Shown piece by piece: positions 7,601-21,308 of a DNA stretch of 23,751 nt. A model generated the notes under the pieces. The model ran no database searches. It saw only the letters and a list, made by a program, of their open reading frames with translations, and was not told where the DNA came from. Numbering within the stretch: the first letter of the stretch is position 1; each line of letters begins with the position of its first letter. Both the position numbers and the translations under genes were made by a program. This DNA is from Trueperaceae bacterium. Its GTDB lineage: Bacteria > Deinococcota > Deinococci > Deinococcales > Trueperaceae. The DNA lies in assembly GCA_965215565.1 (NCBI GenBank), contig CBDCDZ010000003.1, positions 1 to 23,751 on the forward strand, written 5' to 3'.

Positions 7601-8160
7601 ACGCCGGACTCGTGAGCGCGACCTTAGAAAACCTGAAAGCTAAACCGCTTGAAACCATAGGCGACAGTTTGAGCCATGCCGGACTCGAGCAAAAACTGGC
7701 GAGCAAGTCAGACGGTTTTAGGGACTACACCCTGCTACTCGTTAGCGTTTCGAGCATGTGTAATTACAGCCGTCACCGACGCGAAAACTGGCGTTTCGGG
7801 CAACAAACGGATATAAAGAATCTTGTTAGCAATTTGTTGCCCGAAATCGCCGTATTAGCGTCAGGGACAGGGTTAATTACCGCTACTGAAAAAGCTAACG
7901 ACATCTCACCGTCTGAAACGACCTCACCCCCGGCGCGGCGCTACGAACCGACCCTGGCAAATGAGCGCGTCAGCCCCTGGAAAACGCCCGGATATGAAGC
8001 GCTACGGGCGCTCGTCCGCGAACAAAGACAAAGCGAGTCACGCACACAACTACTTGAAACCTTCAGATGGGCGGACTCAGGCGACGCGGCGGCGCTGGGC
8101 GACCTCGCCGGATATCTGCAAAATCCGCAGGTGCAAAGGCTGTTAGGAATGAGCGCATGA
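4654..8160 (+). CDS. Replication initiator: TOPRIM primase fused to a UL9/CyRepA1-like superfamily-2 helicase, 1168 aa
   Basis: TOPRIM motifs CEGVATG, WADFD, GDFNDL; helicase motifs APQESGKT (Walker A), VVTHRESLA (Ia), LVLDESEQ (Walker B), ADAN (III), SPSVQTGLS (V), QALMRAR (VI); GTGA coupling. Confidence 0.88.
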   Translation: MTDTLTQAIEHADLREIIDDLYPDAGVHLGAFKQRIGAPWRGGDNPEVVSLNSKTARDHKAAETYTPFTFLTEVAGYSKGEAATYLIGRAGLANTPQAKRKAARRKRQDKTADVRAEAMRARRQAEALALQQTAPTEGVSTYLGRKGVTEVFSTHRVAPAKLPNGKTVPGMVYSADKHGAFVQLVLHDLEGIVTGYQRLYDGERGKQFVYGSKTTGAFVLLEPSGGLPKTAKALGNLELGVCEGVATGASICLARPHTAMFCSLSAGNLAAVTEALRGHYGYTYREKARKKDDYKSRFAVDLTVWADFDESRTGQIEAHRAALASGCHVRLPKFKHGYGDFNDLHKAKGLEAVKRTRKVTPDVTLAFAKELGKQKLSADKHLAPFALPDSGAALIVRAPQESGKTHRLAELLDDTHMAVLVVTHRESLARNLAARLRFECYNDYSAHMLRDIPQLVICFDSLQKLELNGQLPSYDLLVLDESEQVLQHTTGRHIKRKAQNFGVFEHYLKTAPRIIAADANAGRLTHDTLKRYNPERVITWHRHEHHVAAGRRLRFTHDRDDVLDALEAETRPAWLAADSLRFTRDVDAYLGDPATLTINSETSTTDAAAAYLLDPTGQAKAHERMIASPSVQTGLSDDSGHWQHVLGSFTGYSSTPQDAMQALMRARRVSELTVYATRGRGEPMSVQEALDDAAAADDHEAKGLKRDSYGDQNPSYDRLQAEVTSQRSWRQADYKTGLALEVARLGFSVTCDVACDLKPAEVERRDDRRTALKEAGLERYVRDRVAAERIDEARAKLLDDKYTRTQPEHFALEQYQLRAFYRLPDDVPDDHLAEMLRVDDYKALREKVIRYENFLEPREVAEARASGDLEAGVLRGDTKAHLLRFDYHRELGKVVGMNAETEAHAETWQTEQDRLEGELHSLTAEAKDAQTRRKGELLKQIAKLETDLAAHRLKDVGTTYNAKSDTVKAFVKWCCKHYRALKHAGLVSATLENLKAKPLETIGDSLSHAGLEQKLASKSDGFRDYTLLLVSVSSMCNYSRHRRENWRFGQQTDIKNLVSNLLPEIAVLASGTGLITATEKANDISPSETTSPPARRYEPTLANERVSPWKTPGYEALRALVREQRQSESRTQLLETFRWADSGDAAALGDLAGYLQNPQVQRLLGMSA
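7794..7846. repeat. Perfect 14-bp inverted repeat around a 25-bp AT-rich spacer inside rep; candidate replication origin
   Basis: TTTCGGGCAACAAA (7794-7807) / TTTGTTGCCCGAAA (7833-7846); spacer 17/25 A+T. Confidence 0.7.
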
Positions 8161-8348
8161 CGACCCGAAAAGCAAAACAGCCGCGTCTACTCCCTAACCT
8201 GGCACCTATTCAGGACAGCGACGCGCTAGGTATAGACGACCTGACGACCCGCTACAAATGCAGGTGTGGCAACACGGCCCAAACCGGCATCCGTTTAGAT
8301 GAAATCGTCTGCACCCGTTGCGGCGCTGCAATGAAGGCGACCTCATGA
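8157..8348 (+). CDS. Small Zn-ribbon protein, 63 aa (CxC...CxxC)
   Basis: MTTRKAK...YKCRCG...VCTRCGAAM; ATGA overlap with the rep stop. Confidence 0.7.
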   Translation: MTTRKAKQPRLLPNLAPIQDSDALGIDDLTTRYKCRCGNTAQTGIRLDEIVCTRCGAAMKATS

Positions 8349-8533
8349 CGACCCGACAAACTGCCGAAACGGTGTTATTCGACAAGCCCGTAGGAACGTC
8401 ATCATTTGTCATCAAACCGACGCGCCGCCGCGTTGACGCGACCTACTGCCCACGTTGTCAGAGTTGGGTAGAAGTGCGCCTAAACCCTGTCAGGCTGCAC
8501 TGCACGGGCTGTCAGCGTGAGGCTAGGCCGTGA
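8345..8533 (+). CDS. Small Zn-ribbon protein, 62 aa (CxxC...CxxC)
   Basis: MTTRQTA...YCPRCQ...HCTGCQ; ATGA overlap. Confidence 0.7.
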   Translation: MTTRQTAETVLFDKPVGTSSFVIKPTRRRVDATYCPRCQSWVEVRLNPVRLHCTGCQREARP

Positions 8534-8725: not shown

Positions 8726-9037
8726 ATGCCCGGAGACACGAAACCGCACCTAGCAAGGCAGGGTAAAAAACGCAACCGACGCCCGAAACCCGGCACCGTC
8801 AAGCAGCTCAGCGCGGTGTTGTGGCGAGCGATCACGCACCTTGAGGAACACTTAGACGAGGTTACAACCGCCGAAACGGTAGATACTGCCGAGCTGTGCA
8901 AACTCACGCACGCCTTATCGCAGTCCGCAAGCACCTACTTGAAAGCGGTTGAGGTTGGTGAACTGGAAGCGAGACTCGAGGCACTAGAGAAAGCCCAGGC
9001 CGTCACTCAAGACACGCCGGGGCGTTGGGCCGCATGA
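8726..9037 (+). CDS. Helical protein, 103 aa, with basic N-terminus and C-terminal ELEARLEALE coiled coil (possibly terminase-small-subunit-like)
   Basis: GKKRNRRPKPG basic patch, two helices, then YLKAVEVGELEARLEALEKAQ; G-rich RBS. The TerS likeness is from architecture only. Confidence 0.7.
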   Translation: MPGDTKPHLARQGKKRNRRPKPGTVKQLSAVLWRAITHLEEHLDEVTTAETVDTAELCKLTHALSQSASTYLKAVEVGELEARLEALEKAQAVTQDTPGRWAA

Positions 9038-9077
9038 GTAAATGCAGTATTTTCAGGCTAAAAAAAGAGACGCAAGC

Positions 9078-9266
9078 ATGAACTTACGCAGACGTTTAGA
9101 CCGGCTGACTCCGGCACGTCCTGAGCGGTGCGAGCTGCACGTCTACCTGTTCGACTACGGCGGCGATACTGCGACCGGCCCGAACGGTGAGCGTATGACA
9201 ACGGCTGAAGCTGAGCAGAGGCAACAGGACGCGGCGCTCGTAATCGATTTGAGGCACAACCTGTGA
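9078..9266 (+). CDS. RLxxL-tag small protein 1 (MNLRRRLDRLT), 62 aa
   Basis: The start at 9078 aligns the shared N-terminal tag with the next four genes. Confidence 0.75.
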   Translation: MNLRRRLDRLTPARPERCELHVYLFDYGGDTATGPNGERMTTAEAEQRQQDAALVIDLRHNL

Positions 9267-9496
9267 GACTCAAAACGAGACTAGACCGGCTCGAGCAAAC
9301 CGTCCCTAGTGGCGAGCTGCTAAGACACCACCTGTCTACCCGCGCCTTAGAGGTGAGCTGGCAGGTGCTAGAGCGGCGTTCGTTTTGTGCTAGCCCTGAA
9401 GTTATAGACGCGGTTACGGCTGGTCTGTTAGCCCGTCCCGACTGTGACCTGGCGATTAGGCAACGGGTAGAGGCAAAGGTGAACCGTGAGACTTAG
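9263..9496 (+). CDS. RLxxL-tag small protein 2 (MRLKTRLDRLE), 77 aa
   Basis: GTGA overlap; shared tag. Confidence 0.78.
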   Translation: MRLKTRLDRLEQTVPSGELLRHHLSTRALEVSWQVLERRSFCASPEVIDAVTAGLLARPDCDLAIRQRVEAKVNRET

Positions 9497-9680
9497 AACT
9501 CGGTTAGACCGGCTCAAGACTTCAGCCCCGACCCGTCACGAGGTATGGGCGCAAGACGACGATCTGCCCGACCTGTATCACTGTAAAGAGCTGACCTTAA
9601 ACGGTGACGCACTCAGTAAACGAGCGGACGCTAGCCCCGGCTTGCAAGTTATCCGTATCGTTTGGGAGAGCGTCACATGA
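9486..9680 (+). CDS. RLxxL-tag small protein 3 (MRLRTRLDRLK), 64 aa
   Basis: 11-nt overlap with the upstream gene; shared tag. Confidence 0.78.
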   Translation: MRLRTRLDRLKTSAPTRHEVWAQDDDLPDLYHCKELTLNGDALSKRADASPGLQVIRIVWESVT

Positions 9681-9844
9681 ACCGTGCTAAGCGTTTAGAG
9701 AAGCTCGAGCGTAAAGCTGTCCCGACACACCCGGCGCTGCTGTTTATGACCGCTGACGGGTTGCGAGATACCCATAACCGACCGGTAGACCATGCGCTAG
9801 TGGGTGCGAAAGTCATTATCGGCTTAGACCCGAGAGACATGTAA
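9677..9844 (+). CDS. RLxxL-tag small protein 4 (MNRAKRLEKLE), 55 aa
   Basis: ATGA overlap, GGGAG RBS; shared tag. Confidence 0.75.
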   Translation: MNRAKRLEKLERKAVPTHPALLFMTADGLRDTHNRPVDHALVGAKVIIGLDPRDM

Positions 9845-9847
9845 GCC

Positions 9848-10312
9848 GTGAGGCTTAGGGGACGCCTAGACAAGCTCGAGACTGAGACCGTAGCGCACTG
9901 GCACGCGGCCTGGGAGAGTTATAGCGAACGCCTGTTCTATCACACCGACCCTTTACTAGACCCGTTACGCGCCGCTGCTACTGAAGCCGAGGCGCAAGGG
10001 CTATTCAAGGATGAGGCAGCCCTAAACGCCTCGTGTGACGTGTTCTGCGAATGTATCGGTATCCCCAGTCCGTTTGCGCTGTCAGCGTGGGAGGCAAAGT
10101 CAGAACTACCCGACCTTGACGCACCGCCTGACTTAACCCGCTGGCCTCACCATTTAGCTGAGCCACCGCCCGAACCGTTAGGGGTTAGAGAGAAGCTCGA
10201 GCCCTACAAAACTAGCCCTGACATCCGCGAGAGTTTACCGGCGCTGCTGTATCTGTTCTGGTTAGCTTATGCGCGGGCGCGTCGTGAGTATCAGACGGTT
10301 GTCAAAAGTTAA
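9848..10312 (+). CDS. RLxxL-tag protein 5 (MRLRGRLDKLE), 154 aa
   Basis: GTG 3 nt after the upstream stop; shared tag; Pro/Trp-rich middle and hydrophobic C-terminal helix LPALLYLFWLAYA. Confidence 0.8.
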   Translation: MRLRGRLDKLETETVAHWHAAWESYSERLFYHTDPLLDPLRAAATEAEAQGLFKDEAALNASCDVFCECIGIPSPFALSAWEAKSELPDLDAPPDLTRWPHHLAEPPPEPLGVREKLEPYKTSPDIRESLPALLYLFWLAYARARREYQTVVKS

Positions 10313-10360
10313 GGGTCGCCGGAGTCTATAACAAAGAGTCTATAAACGGCGACCCCTTTG
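10313..10360 (+). terminator. Stem-loop directly after the operon; the loop is a tandem GAGTCTATAA repeat
   Basis: GGGTCGCCG (10313-10321) / CGGCGACCC (10347-10355), then CTTTG; the 25-nt loop is atypical for a simple terminator. Confidence 0.5.
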
Positions 10361-10433
10361 TAATGGTTAAGGGTTGCCCGTGCCGGTTGCTGCTCTTTTG
10401 TCTCGAGTGCATATCAAGGAGTGCATAAACCGC
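10322..10433 (+). repeat. Two 29-bp bipartite elements, each with two GAGTnnATA half-sites 14 bp apart
   Basis: GAGTCTATAACAAAGAGTCTATAAACGGC (10322) versus GAGTGCATATCAAGGAGTGCATAAACCGC (10405). Confidence 0.75.
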
Positions 10434-10581: not shown

Positions 10582-11142
10582 ATGGCAGAACAGCCCGAAC
10601 CATCCGAAACCCTTTACTCAGCTCGTGAGGTTGCAACCGAGTTGGGTTTAGGCGCGGCGATGCTGAGACGCTACGCCTCAACCTACGAAACGGTATCAGG
10701 CGACGCGATCACGGTGCATCGTCGGGACGGGCGGCTATTTACTGAGGAACAAGTAAAAGTCTTAGTGCAGGCTCGTGCCTTGGTTATGCAGACTTCAGTA
10801 GACGTTGAAACTGCCGTCAAGCAAGCCCTAGATAAACCGCTACAGGTTGCGCCGGTTGCCCTGGCACAAAGTAGCGCACAGGGTAGCGACGCCCTGATAG
10901 CGGCCCTTACAGCCGCACAGAGAGAAGCTAACGCGCCGCTACTGGGTGAGTTGCGCGGTATCCGGGAAAGCTTGGAACGCCTCGAGGGTTTACAGGCTAG
11001 ACAGTTGGTAGAACCCGAAACTGCCGCGCAGGTTAAGCGGTTAGACAACCTTCAGGCGAAGGCCCGCGAAACTGCCGAGACGAGCGAACACGGGCCGGTG
11101 GTGCGCTTGGTACTATGGCTCGAGCGGGTGTTACGGCGCTAA
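10582..11142 (+). CDS. MerR-type HTH / coiled-coil protein with amphipathic C-terminal helix; candidate single-protein partition factor
   Basis: YSAREVATELGLGAAMLRRYA...RRDGRLFTEEQV (MerR-like wHTH); coiled coil LLGELRGIRESLERLE; tail VVRLVLWLERVLRR. Confidence 0.75.
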   Translation: MAEQPEPSETLYSAREVATELGLGAAMLRRYASTYETVSGDAITVHRRDGRLFTEEQVKVLVQARALVMQTSVDVETAVKQALDKPLQVAPVALAQSSAQGSDALIAALTAAQREANAPLLGELRGIRESLERLEGLQARQLVEPETAAQVKRLDNLQAKARETAETSEHGPVVRLVLWLERVLRR

Positions 11143-19721: not shown

Positions 19722-20033
19722 ATGCCCGGAGACACGAAACCGCACCTAGCAAGGCAGGGTAAAAAACGCAACCGACGCCCGAAACCCGGCACCGTCAAGC
19801 AGCTCAGCGCGGTGTTGTGGCGAGCGATCACGCACCTTGAGGAACACTTAGACGAGGTTACAACCGCCGAAACGGTAGATACTGCCGAGCTGTGCAAACT
19901 CACGCACGCCTTATCGCAGTCCGCAAGCACCTACTTGAAAGCGGTTGAGGTTGGTGAACTGGAAGCGAGACTCGAGGCACTAGAGAAAGCCCAGGCCGTC
20001 ACTCAAGACACGCCGGGGCGTTGGGCCGCATGA
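19722..20033 (+). CDS. 103-aa helical protein with C-terminal RLEALE (copy 2)
   Basis: Identical to 8726-9037. Confidence 0.7.
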   Translation: MPGDTKPHLARQGKKRNRRPKPGTVKQLSAVLWRAITHLEEHLDEVTTAETVDTAELCKLTHALSQSASTYLKAVEVGELEARLEALEKAQAVTQDTPGRWAA

Positions 20034-20073
20034 GTAAATGCAGTATTTTCAGGCTAAAAAAAGAGACGCAAGC

Positions 20074-20262
20074 ATGAACTTACGCAGACGTTTAGACCGG
20101 CTGACTCCGGCACGTCCTGAGCGGTGCGAGCTGCACGTCTACCTGTTCGACTACGGCGGCGATACTGCGACCGGCCCGAACGGTGAGCGTATGACAACGG
20201 CTGAAGCTGAGCAGAGGCAACAGGACGCGGCGCTCGTAATCGATTTGAGGCACAACCTGTGA
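20074..20262 (+). CDS. RLxxL-tag small protein 1 (copy 2)
   Basis: Identical to 9078-9266. Confidence 0.75.
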   Translation: MNLRRRLDRLTPARPERCELHVYLFDYGGDTATGPNGERMTTAEAEQRQQDAALVIDLRHNL

Positions 20263-20492
20263 GACTCAAAACGAGACTAGACCGGCTCGAGCAAACCGTC
20301 CCTAGTGGCGAGCTGCTAAGACACCACCTGTCTACCCGCGCCTTAGAGGTGAGCTGGCAGGTGCTAGAGCGGCGTTCGTTTTGTGCTAGCCCTGAAGTTA
20401 TAGACGCGGTTACGGCTGGTCTGTTAGCCCGTCCCGACTGTGACCTGGCGATTAGGCAACGGGTAGAGGCAAAGGTGAACCGTGAGACTTAG
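20259..20492 (+). CDS. RLxxL-tag small protein 2 (copy 2)
   Basis: Identical to 9263-9496. Confidence 0.78.
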   Translation: MRLKTRLDRLEQTVPSGELLRHHLSTRALEVSWQVLERRSFCASPEVIDAVTAGLLARPDCDLAIRQRVEAKVNRET

Positions 20493-20676
20493 AACTCGGT
20501 TAGACCGGCTCAAGACTTCAGCCCCGACCCGTCACGAGGTATGGGCGCAAGACGACGATCTGCCCGACCTGTATCACTGTAAAGAGCTGACCTTAAACGG
20601 TGACGCACTCAGTAAACGAGCGGACGCTAGCCCCGGCTTGCAAGTTATCCGTATCGTTTGGGAGAGCGTCACATGA
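20482..20676 (+). CDS. RLxxL-tag small protein 3 (copy 2)
   Basis: Identical to 9486-9680. Confidence 0.78.
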   Translation: MRLRTRLDRLKTSAPTRHEVWAQDDDLPDLYHCKELTLNGDALSKRADASPGLQVIRIVWESVT

Positions 20677-20840
20677 ACCGTGCTAAGCGTTTAGAGAAGC
20701 TCGAGCGTAAAGCTGTCCCGACACACCCGGCGCTGCTGTTTATGACCGCTGACGGGTTGCGAGATACCCATAACCGACCGGTAGACCATGCGCTAGTGGG
20801 TGCGAAAGTCATTATCGGCTTAGACCCGAGAGACATGTAA
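20673..20840 (+). CDS. RLxxL-tag small protein 4 (copy 2)
   Basis: Identical to 9677-9844. Confidence 0.75.
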   Translation: MNRAKRLEKLERKAVPTHPALLFMTADGLRDTHNRPVDHALVGAKVIIGLDPRDM

Positions 20841-20843
20841 GCC

Positions 20844-21308
20844 GTGAGGCTTAGGGGACGCCTAGACAAGCTCGAGACTGAGACCGTAGCGCACTGGCAC
20901 GCGGCCTGGGAGAGTTATAGCGAACGCCTGTTCTATCACACCGACCCTTTACTAGACCCGTTACGCGCCGCTGCTACTGAAGCCGAGGCGCAAGGGCTAT
21001 TCAAGGATGAGGCAGCCCTAAACGCCTCGTGTGACGTGTTCTGCGAATGTATCGGTATCCCCAGTCCGTTTGCGCTGTCAGCGTGGGAGGCAAAGTCAGA
21101 ACTACCCGACCTTGACGCACCGCCTGACTTAACCCGCTGGCCTCACCATTTAGCTGAGCCACCGCCCGAACCGTTAGGGGTTAGAGAGAAGCTCGAGCCC
21201 TACAAAACTAGCCCTGACATCCGCGAGAGTTTACCGGCGCTGCTGTATCTGTTCTGGTTAGCTTATGCGCGGGCGCGTCGTGAGTATCAGACGGTTGTCA
21301 AAAGTTAA
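20844..21308 (+). CDS. RLxxL-tag protein 5 (copy 2)
   Basis: Identical to 9848-10312. Confidence 0.8.
   Translation: MRLRGRLDKLETETVAHWHAAWESYSERLFYHTDPLLDPLRAAATEAEAQGLFKDEAALNASCDVFCECIGIPSPFALSAWEAKSELPDLDAPPDLTRWPHHLAEPPPEPLGVREKLEPYKTSPDIRESLPALLYLFWLAYARARREYQTVVKS

Follow-up and report, generated by a model that had tools for sequence, protein, structure and literature searches.

Staphylococcus aureus pathogenicity islands (SaPIs) have their own terminase small subunit (TerS), which uses the terminase large subunit (TerL) of the helper phage, and a small protein, Ppi, blocks the TerS of the helper. In the Gram-negative PICIs (phage-inducible chromosomal islands) of Escherichia coli, the small satellite protein Rpp makes coiled-coil contacts with TerS and redirects packaging to the satellite (PMC9026076; PMC6739421). 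The Vibrio cholerae satellite PLE (phage-inducible chromosomal island-like element) encodes Gpi, GpsA, and GpsB, of which one inhibits TerL and two are packaging specifiers (PMC11417361). In phage lambda, the proposed TerL-binding domain of TerS is the C-terminal 40 residues, facing the N-terminus of TerL (PMC9026076). The locus described here is located on a contig of a Trueperaceae bacterium (GenBank assembly GCA_965215565.1, contig CBDCDZ010000003.1; the window, 23,751 nt, is the entire contig, C3). It consists of a gene for a 103-aa protein, which we call the hub, and five small downstream genes whose products share an N-terminal peptide of about 11 residues, which we call the tag. The observation is real, highly non-random, and general. 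Small tagged genes and the gene for TerL are alternative occupants of the slot after the hub, and we tentatively propose that the tag is a docking helix for the hub.

The five tagged genes have the starts and N-termini given in the original prediction (Table 1, with lengths), and all of them share R6-L7-[DE]8-[RK]9-L10. At position 11, three genes have E, the 9078 gene has T, and the 9486 gene has K. The genes are coupled, as had been claimed: a 40-nt gap between the hub and gene 1 is followed by a 4-nt overlap (GTGA, at 9263), an 11-nt overlap (at 9486), a second 4-nt overlap (ATGA, at 9677), and a 3-nt gap (at 9848). The bodies diverge and do not align end to end; in a MAFFT alignment only M1, R6, L7, and L10 are invariant, and the alignment ends at about residue 16-25. 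The repeat of the array at 19722-21308 cannot be counted as a second occurrence, since it is the same 10,996-bp plasmid unit assembled twice over.

A tag profile was built from 63 unique tags of loci in a species-level genome collection. It replaced a strict regular-expression chain, which missed window gene 1 (T at position 11) and some variants. In the 4.49-Mb source genome, 53 of 154,273 candidate starts reach a profile score of at least 14. Twelve lie on this contig: each of its two copies contributes the five genes and, upstream in the reading frame of the 9677 gene, one alternative start. The remaining 41 are scattered over the 4.39-Mb chromosome, none of them clustered. This distribution makes the array non-random. 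The median score of the tagged proteins is 19.5, and the background maximum is 17.0 (7,568 open reading frames, ORFs). Two chromosomal ORFs of 57 and 142 aa, C4:4256100 (+) and C4:768423 (+) in genome G000, have tag scores of 15.3 and 16.9. The tag is under protein-level selection. In all ten pairs of window tags, one to five identical residues use different codons, which bears out the earlier reading of the synonymous codons, and across 128 tags from many loci the tag core makes use of every one of the six Arg and six Leu codons; selection thus acts on the protein, not on the DNA. The tag is net positive in 92% of 135 cases (mean +2.1). The pattern R-h-x-x-h-E, which is, as had been stated in the original prediction, a named conserved trimerisation motif of short coiled coils (PMC6173795), is found in three of the five window tags, in the tag-profile consensus, and in the hub; T or K replaces E in the other two tags. 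Most of the small families show a helix-friendly stretch of about 11-14 residues, then Pro or Gly.

The AlphaFold2 (AF2) model of the hub (predicted local distance difference test score, pLDDT, 85.8) has helices at residues 7-18, 25-48, and 54-95, the N-terminal one being basic. Residues 25-48 and 54 to about 78 form a hairpin, and the second helix of the hairpin continues to residue 95. The most conserved block of the family in an alignment of 29 hubs (Table 1) lies beyond the hairpin, as judged from the AF2 helix lengths. This layout of basic N-terminus, helical hairpin, and C-terminal helix is compatible with that of a TerS, in which a DNA-binding part at the N-terminus and a central helical hairpin for oligomerisation are followed by a C-terminal part that binds TerL. 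RLEALE is located at 8972-8989 in the C-terminal part of the gene, and its likeness to the tag is confirmed by the profile: hub residues 80-91 score 15.7, a value reached by three of 678,367 background windows. The net charge of the block is -2 to -5 (mean -3.2) and is negative in 29/29 hubs. The complementarity of charge between the basic tags and this acidic block, seen at the level of sequence, supports a putative docking of one on the other. Many hubs end in ...R-G-A-A or ...A-A (window 9020-9037; L014:8570-8591; other Deinococcus loci). The DNA of the hub tail contains a G-rich Shine-Dalgarno-like run and a GTGA/ATGA stop-start overlap for the first tagged gene, and the conserved tail may reflect translational coupling rather than protein function.

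Hub homologues were found in 11 of 61 related genomes, at 32 loci of the genome collection (Trueperaceae, many Deinococcus including one plasmid, Rubricoccaceae, Rhodothermales, Chloroflexi, and others), and on 51 further metagenome contigs. A profile search with 8,000 scored candidates gave at least 1,669 hub protein clusters, none with a Pfam domain; all are named "hypothetical" or mislabelled, some as transcriptional regulators. Nearly all the hubs have tagged genes downstream. With the strict regular-expression chain, a tagged ORF starts at the hub stop in 22 of 26 genome-collection loci, and the profile detects one in 37 of 49 metagenome loci with a hub stop, an independent set. The four genome loci missed by the regular expression have a variant first tag (L029), a truncated hub gene (L043), a 292-aa protein with a weaker variant (L047), and a tagged ORF about 660 nt downstream (L050). 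Six genome loci were outside the chain; L040 and L041 have tagged ORFs, whereas at L045, L046, L048, and L049 the hub match is partial or there is too little room. Nine of the twelve metagenome misses were re-examined. Seven have weaker tag variants (six genes in L091, a protein of about 363 aa with R-L-D-R-L-Y at five loci, and one 292-aa protein), and two are too short; the other three have at most 208 nt downstream of the hub. Arrays contain one to eight tagged genes, with eight in Deinococcus frigens. In the Chloroflexi-type hubs (Table 1), a Cys-rich segment (C...C...FCxxH) replaces the basic N-terminus, and one member matches DUF5763 (E 3.9e-5). These hubs keep the block as LEVGELEARLxALE, and downstream of each is one protein only, of 280-367 aa, which has a variant of the tag and gave no family match.

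At eight loci (Table 1), a hub homologue is located directly upstream of TerL, often with an overlapping start. Two adjacent genes encode the hub-linked TerL. The product of one, about 262-272 aa long, is an ATPase (Terminase_6N; in L109, phrog_7579 at E 4e-64), and that of the other, about 199-234 aa long, is a nuclease (Terminase_6C). As the split is conserved at 46-74% identity across genomes, the two-gene TerL looks natural and not like a pseudogene. TerL homologues with a different TerS are single proteins of 427-447 aa. Among the loci examined, TerL and small tagged genes were not seen together behind one hub. The hub-linked TerLs carry an extra N-terminal amphipathic helix that is tag-like. 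TerL of L109 starts with MTTASVLRRLSKLEARV, a canonical tag that scores 23.0, higher than the background maximum of 17.0. Six other hub-linked TerLs, two of them close kin, score 9.2, 6.5, 2.1, 2.0, 1.6, and -2.3 (empirical p 0.0016-0.098). The six TerLs that follow a different TerS of about 160 aa, of the Cys/helix-turn-helix (HTH) type, are without the extension and score -3.2 to -17.6 (p 0.12-0.88). In hub-TerL loci found via TerL, the hub block departs from R-L-x-x-L-E, and there the TerL helices have a greater length and a less canonical sequence. This can be no more than a hint that block and helix co-vary, because the hub-first searches were seeded on the canonical block. Where examined, the surroundings of the hub-TerL loci (hub, TerL, HTH gene, and integrase) resemble those of the small integrated elements bearing tagged genes. 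The integrase was recognised by Pfam in L015 only and was read by eye from ORF N-termini in L039 and L083. ORF listings for about 10 kb on both sides of the two copies in G284, read by eye with no family scan, showed no gene that was obviously for a capsid or portal protein. Because the slot after the hub holds a two-gene TerL with a tag-like N-terminus, canonical in one case, in eight related loci, the hub is most likely a TerS of a new family, to judge only from its architecture and the order of the genes.

At the protein level, the tag is a module common to unrelated bodies. After removal of the tag, 73 tagged proteins fall into 31 BLASTP families (E < 1e-3). The 154-aa window protein belongs to F4, the widest family, and the 55-aa protein to F8; the other three are singletons, two of which have look-alikes in L085-L087. 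The expected variation among close relatives in number, order, and identity of the tagged genes was found. Plasmids with a hub identity of 83-89% (contigs of 10.5-13.5 kb) have five to six tagged genes in another order and composition, and the chromosomal island L020 has five in yet another order. No PHROG or Pfam match was found for the tagged proteins. The AF2 model of the 154-aa protein (pLDDT 91.4, predicted template modelling score 0.83) is all-helical, and a comparison of the F4 fold with the PDB and BFVD gave non-specific helical matches only. Other tagged proteins of F4 and of the Chloroflexi type, 150-365 aa, are all-helical as well. Complex prediction with the full-length hub and the 154-aa protein gave no answer (score 0.01, against a mark of 0.32) and counts neither way. 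In many small tagged families, a hydrophobic strand and then a D-G or P-D-G turn were seen by eye about 8-15 residues past the tag (the window 9078 and 9677 genes, L037:6318, L105:1808, and L036:2254). This loose feature may point to a small fold that these families have in common, or to a further element of contact. Some of the "families" may therefore be very diverged paralogues; others are clearly different, F4 with its confident all-helical fold among them.

We propose, at somewhat less than even odds, that the tag is a TerL-type docking helix for the hub and that satellite-like elements without TerL use the small proteins as exchangeable adaptors or decoys that bind the hub. The 103-aa protein would be a TerS-like packaging-initiation protein of a large unannotated family, and a hub-linked TerL would dock by its N-terminal helix on the C-terminal helix of the hub (ELEAR-L-x-x-L-E), which is acidic and protrudes, by analogy with lambda. 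Here and in most relatives, TerL is absent and the slot is filled by one to eight small, fast-turning-over genes that keep only the basic helix; their products would occupy this hub surface in turn, as accessory subunits that can replace one another. Either they are adaptors between the TerS of the element and the packaging motor of a helper phage, in favour of which the conserved bodies argue that they do more than fill the socket, or they are decoys that compete with a TerL. Hub and tag helices could, for example, form mixed coiled coils. In a wider form of the proposal, which we consider rather unlikely, the locus would be a modular packaging system in which the new TerS forms an acidic socket, and TerL and the swappable, unrelated proteins of TerL-less plasmids and integrated satellites share a basic plug. 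Each of these proteins would couple the TerS of the element to the motor or portal of a different helper, or block one, and the array would set and broaden the helper range.

Several observations weigh against the docking proposal. The hub matches no TerS family: searches of Pfam and PHROGs gave no match, none of the 29 aligned members matched a TerS family there (one of the 29, of the Cys-rich Chloroflexi type, matches DUF5763), a profile search of the PDB with the hub alignment gave nothing below E 0.2, and Foldseek against PDB folds gave nothing at E <= 0.001, with non-specific helical matches only. The hub also could not be aligned with the neighbouring 160-aa Zn/HTH TerS of other TerL lineages (hhalign probability 6%). 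In the protein atlas only unnamed Deinococcota and Planctomycetota clusters were found, the nearest named one being DUF8136 at 0.87, below the lead threshold. The original prediction that the hub is TerS-like is backed by its position upstream of TerL and not by a match to a known TerS family or fold. The canonical tag is found on one hub-linked TerL only; the others are weakly alike, and several are kin. No TerL with PF03237 or PF03354 was found in the genome of the window, and neither tblastn of the hub against phage and plasmid collections nor a viral-contig scan gave a homologue, so that these searches point to no helper phage. As a plasmid that replicates by itself and carries a toxin-antitoxin pair, the window need not be a satellite. 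In the 154-aa protein, the tag opens one continuous AF2 helix (residues 3-49) and is not obviously a free peptide. Finally, tag and hub motif are both coiled-coil-like, and each could self-associate.

This last point leads to an explanation that we judge unlikely, in which the tag is a self-association module, a short R-h-x-x-h-E coiled coil, and the small proteins are independent homo-oligomeric effectors, e.g., for anti-defence or host takeover, that merely share the hub operon. Three window tags and the profile consensus fit the trimerisation motif (PMC6173795), the F4 tag runs on into a 47-residue helix, and the C-terminal part of the hub profile has a weak, non-significant likeness (E 0.5-6) to peptides designed as trimeric coiled coils. 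However, the helical stretch that mostly precedes Pro or Gly is short for a stand-alone coiled coil, and self-association leaves unexplained the tie of the tag to the gene after the hub across phyla, the tag-like TerL helix in the same slot, and the charge complementarity with the hub. It is improbable that the proteins are ordinary, very fast-evolving paralogues of one small protein, with the N-terminal helix as the slowest part and no docking on the hub. Mobile elements often carry diverging paralogues in tandem, and several families share the weak second feature (linker, hydrophobic strand, and D-G/P-D-G turn; by eye). Paralogy does not fit the all-helical tagged proteins, nor the TerL ATPase, which places the tag on demonstrably unrelated bodies, so that different folds behind the tag are already partly in evidence. 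It also speaks against paralogy that 47 of 70 tags have their core Arg at residue 6 or 7.

N-terminal capsid-targeting sequences offer an analogy for another role of the tag, as an address label for a portal, procapsid, or TerL, by which tagged proteins would be delivered to, or packaged in, helper capsids. The tag is anchored at the N-terminus of unrelated, cargo-like small proteins in a packaging context, as such a label would be, but the matching conserved hub motif is left unexplained and no capsid or portal gene is near any locus examined; we give this explanation little credence. Lastly, the likeness of the peptides could be a by-product of a DNA-level repeat, either TerS sites in a pac-like array or recombination microhomology. 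Three window tags share 22-26 of 36 nt, and arrays gain, lose, and reorder cassettes. The other window pairs share 17-21 of 36 nt, however, and phyla that differ widely in G+C content have all kept the peptide. A DNA-level role, largely refuted by the use of all six Arg and six Leu codons at the core, was rejected and has in our view next to no chance of being correct.

Table 1. Features of the hub-tag locus in the window (nucleotide positions) and related loci (locus designations)
Feature	Position or loci	Strand	Remarks
Hub gene, 103 aa, candidate TerS of unannotated family	8726..9037	+	ORF; homologues directly upstream of TerL in related loci
Hub residues 80-91 (LEARLEALEKAQ), proposed docking surface	8963..8998	+	Part of conserved block EVGELEAR[LIV]xx[LI]E
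Tagged gene 1, 62 aa, MNLRRRLDRLT...	9078..9266	+	Profile score 17.0; body resembles 63-aa genes in L085, L086
Tagged gene 2, 77 aa, MRLKTRLDRLE...	9263..9496	+	Profile score 21.3; singleton body family in set
Tagged gene 3, 64 aa, MRLRTRLDRLK...	9486..9680	+	Profile score 16.0
Tagged gene 4, 55 aa, MNRAKRLEKLE...	9677..9844	+	Profile score 21.2; body family F8; homologues in L020, L085, L086
Tagged gene 5, 154 aa, MRLRGRLDKLE...	9848..10312	+	Body family F4, most widely conserved tagged family; all-helical
Operon-closing hairpin	10313..10355	+	9-bp perfect stem GGGTCGCCG / CGGCGACCC, loop with two GAGTCTATAA repeats
Second copy of hub and array	19722..21308	+	Concatemeric assembly, 100% identity to first copy
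Replication protein (primase-helicase), 1,168 aa	4654..8160	+	Toprim_3, Herpes_ori_bp, phrog_4913 matches
Hub-TerL loci	G017:C4; G017:C21; G036:C75; G007:C23; G333:C323; G284:C13 (two copies); metagenome L109
Split TerL genes	L015:1864-3380; L039:848-2262; L082:9626-11100; L084:1230-2737; L109:6072-6860
Chloroflexi-type hub loci	L042:920-1339; L044:6791-7216; L047:1264-1659; L050:2686-3075; L051:709-1131; L119, L120, L127

The contig is a 10,996-bp unit repeated 2.16 times, with copies that are 100% identical, in a genome of four contigs (4.49 Mb in total). The repeat could be a genuine multimer, or an artefact that arose when long reads of a small circular plasmid were assembled; as terminases usually act on concatemers, the distinction could matter. 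The stretch was found in only two sequencing runs, both of one sample, and no RNA run is listed as containing it; two further runs with the same species label contain next to none of its words, which is not proof of absence. The replication protein has tblastn matches at 24-27% identity that are annotated as CyRepA1 family. One unit also encodes an HTH and MazF-like pair, two DUF3102 proteins, and a MerR-like protein. The pair (1533-2290) is a plasmid addiction module of the ordinary kind, in which the antitoxin-like gene (HTH_26) is coupled to a gene for a toxin like PemK/MazF (E 9e-18). Pfam and PHROGs scans of the window detected no gene for a capsid, portal, or tail protein or for TerL; with its own primase-helicase replication protein, the hub, and zero structural genes in these scans, the window has the gene content of a satellite. 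Chromosomal relatives carry PrimPol, DUF3987, and Hjc genes.

Within the 3' part of the replication gene (7739-7901) is an 81-nt inverted repeat, 70% complementary, with 1 nt between the arms. Just upstream of the hub, two overlapping small ORFs of 93 and 71 aa (8067-8348 and 8318-8533) have two CxxC pairs each and are zinc-ribbon-like; no family match was found for either. In chromosomal relatives, a gene for an Hjc-type resolvase is located upstream of the hub instead (L011:8644-9084, Pfam Hjc and PDDEXK_15). The hairpin that closes the operon is strong (-22.5 kcal/mol, z -2.8). Paired direct repeats with 14-nt spacing, two of GAGTCTATAA and two of GAGTGCATA, at 10313-10430 are candidate protein-binding sites. 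A promoter/terminator scan showed no enrichment. After the operon, 10582-11142 encodes a 186-aa MerR-like protein (MerR_1 below cut-off, phrog_3470 at E 7e-10) with an internal tag-like stretch, SLERLEGLQ. The DNA-binding domain of lambda gpNu1 is MerR-like, and by analogy the 186-aa protein could be a second candidate for packaging recognition.

To our knowledge, TerS-TerL contact sites are poorly defined for most phages. If the tag docks as proposed, it would be a portable address peptide of about 11 residues for a terminase small subunit, and a sequence rule for locating such contact sites would follow. A large family without annotation, with its hub clusters numbering at least 1,669, would be explained, and dozens of orphan small-protein families in Deinococcota, Rhodothermales, and Chloroflexi would be given a role. 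Plasmids and satellites would have a new route by which to tap phage packaging, and there would be a handle to predict transducible elements.

Mobile elements that interfere with or redirect phage packaging are known as a kind; the modular tag architecture is undescribed. No description of such tagged arrays was found in the literature on terminase, satellites, coiled coils, Deinococcus, mimicry, docking, and the motif strings, in keeping with the original prediction that this is not a described system. Nor did PHROG and Pfam scans of the tagged proteins indicate homology to Rpp, Ppi, or Gpi-Gps, sequences that were not compared one to one. SaPIs differ in that a single inhibitor takes the place of a modular array of tagged proteins, and their protein families are not related to those described here. 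As in lambda terminase, a gene for a small protein precedes that for TerL, and the C-terminal helix of the lambda small subunit is proposed to contact the TerL N-terminus (PMC9026076); unlike lambda, the hub is without detectable similarity to known TerS, TerL is split into ATPase and nuclease, and tagged proteins replace TerL at most loci. The R-h-x-x-h-E pattern of short coiled coils matches most tags and the hub block, but the described cases are homotrimeric and span several heptads, whereas here the pattern lies in the first 11 residues, often with Pro to follow. The proposed action of several small proteins on a terminase is shared with Gpi, GpsA, and GpsB; in the available text on these (PMC11417361) no shared tag is reported, and their target is the TerL of the helper. 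Like Rpp, the tagged proteins are small mobile-element proteins proposed to engage a TerS. Rpp is a single TerS-like winged-HTH protein that binds the TerS of the helper, whereas the present locus has its own TerS-like hub and a variable array of unrelated proteins that share one short N-terminal tag.

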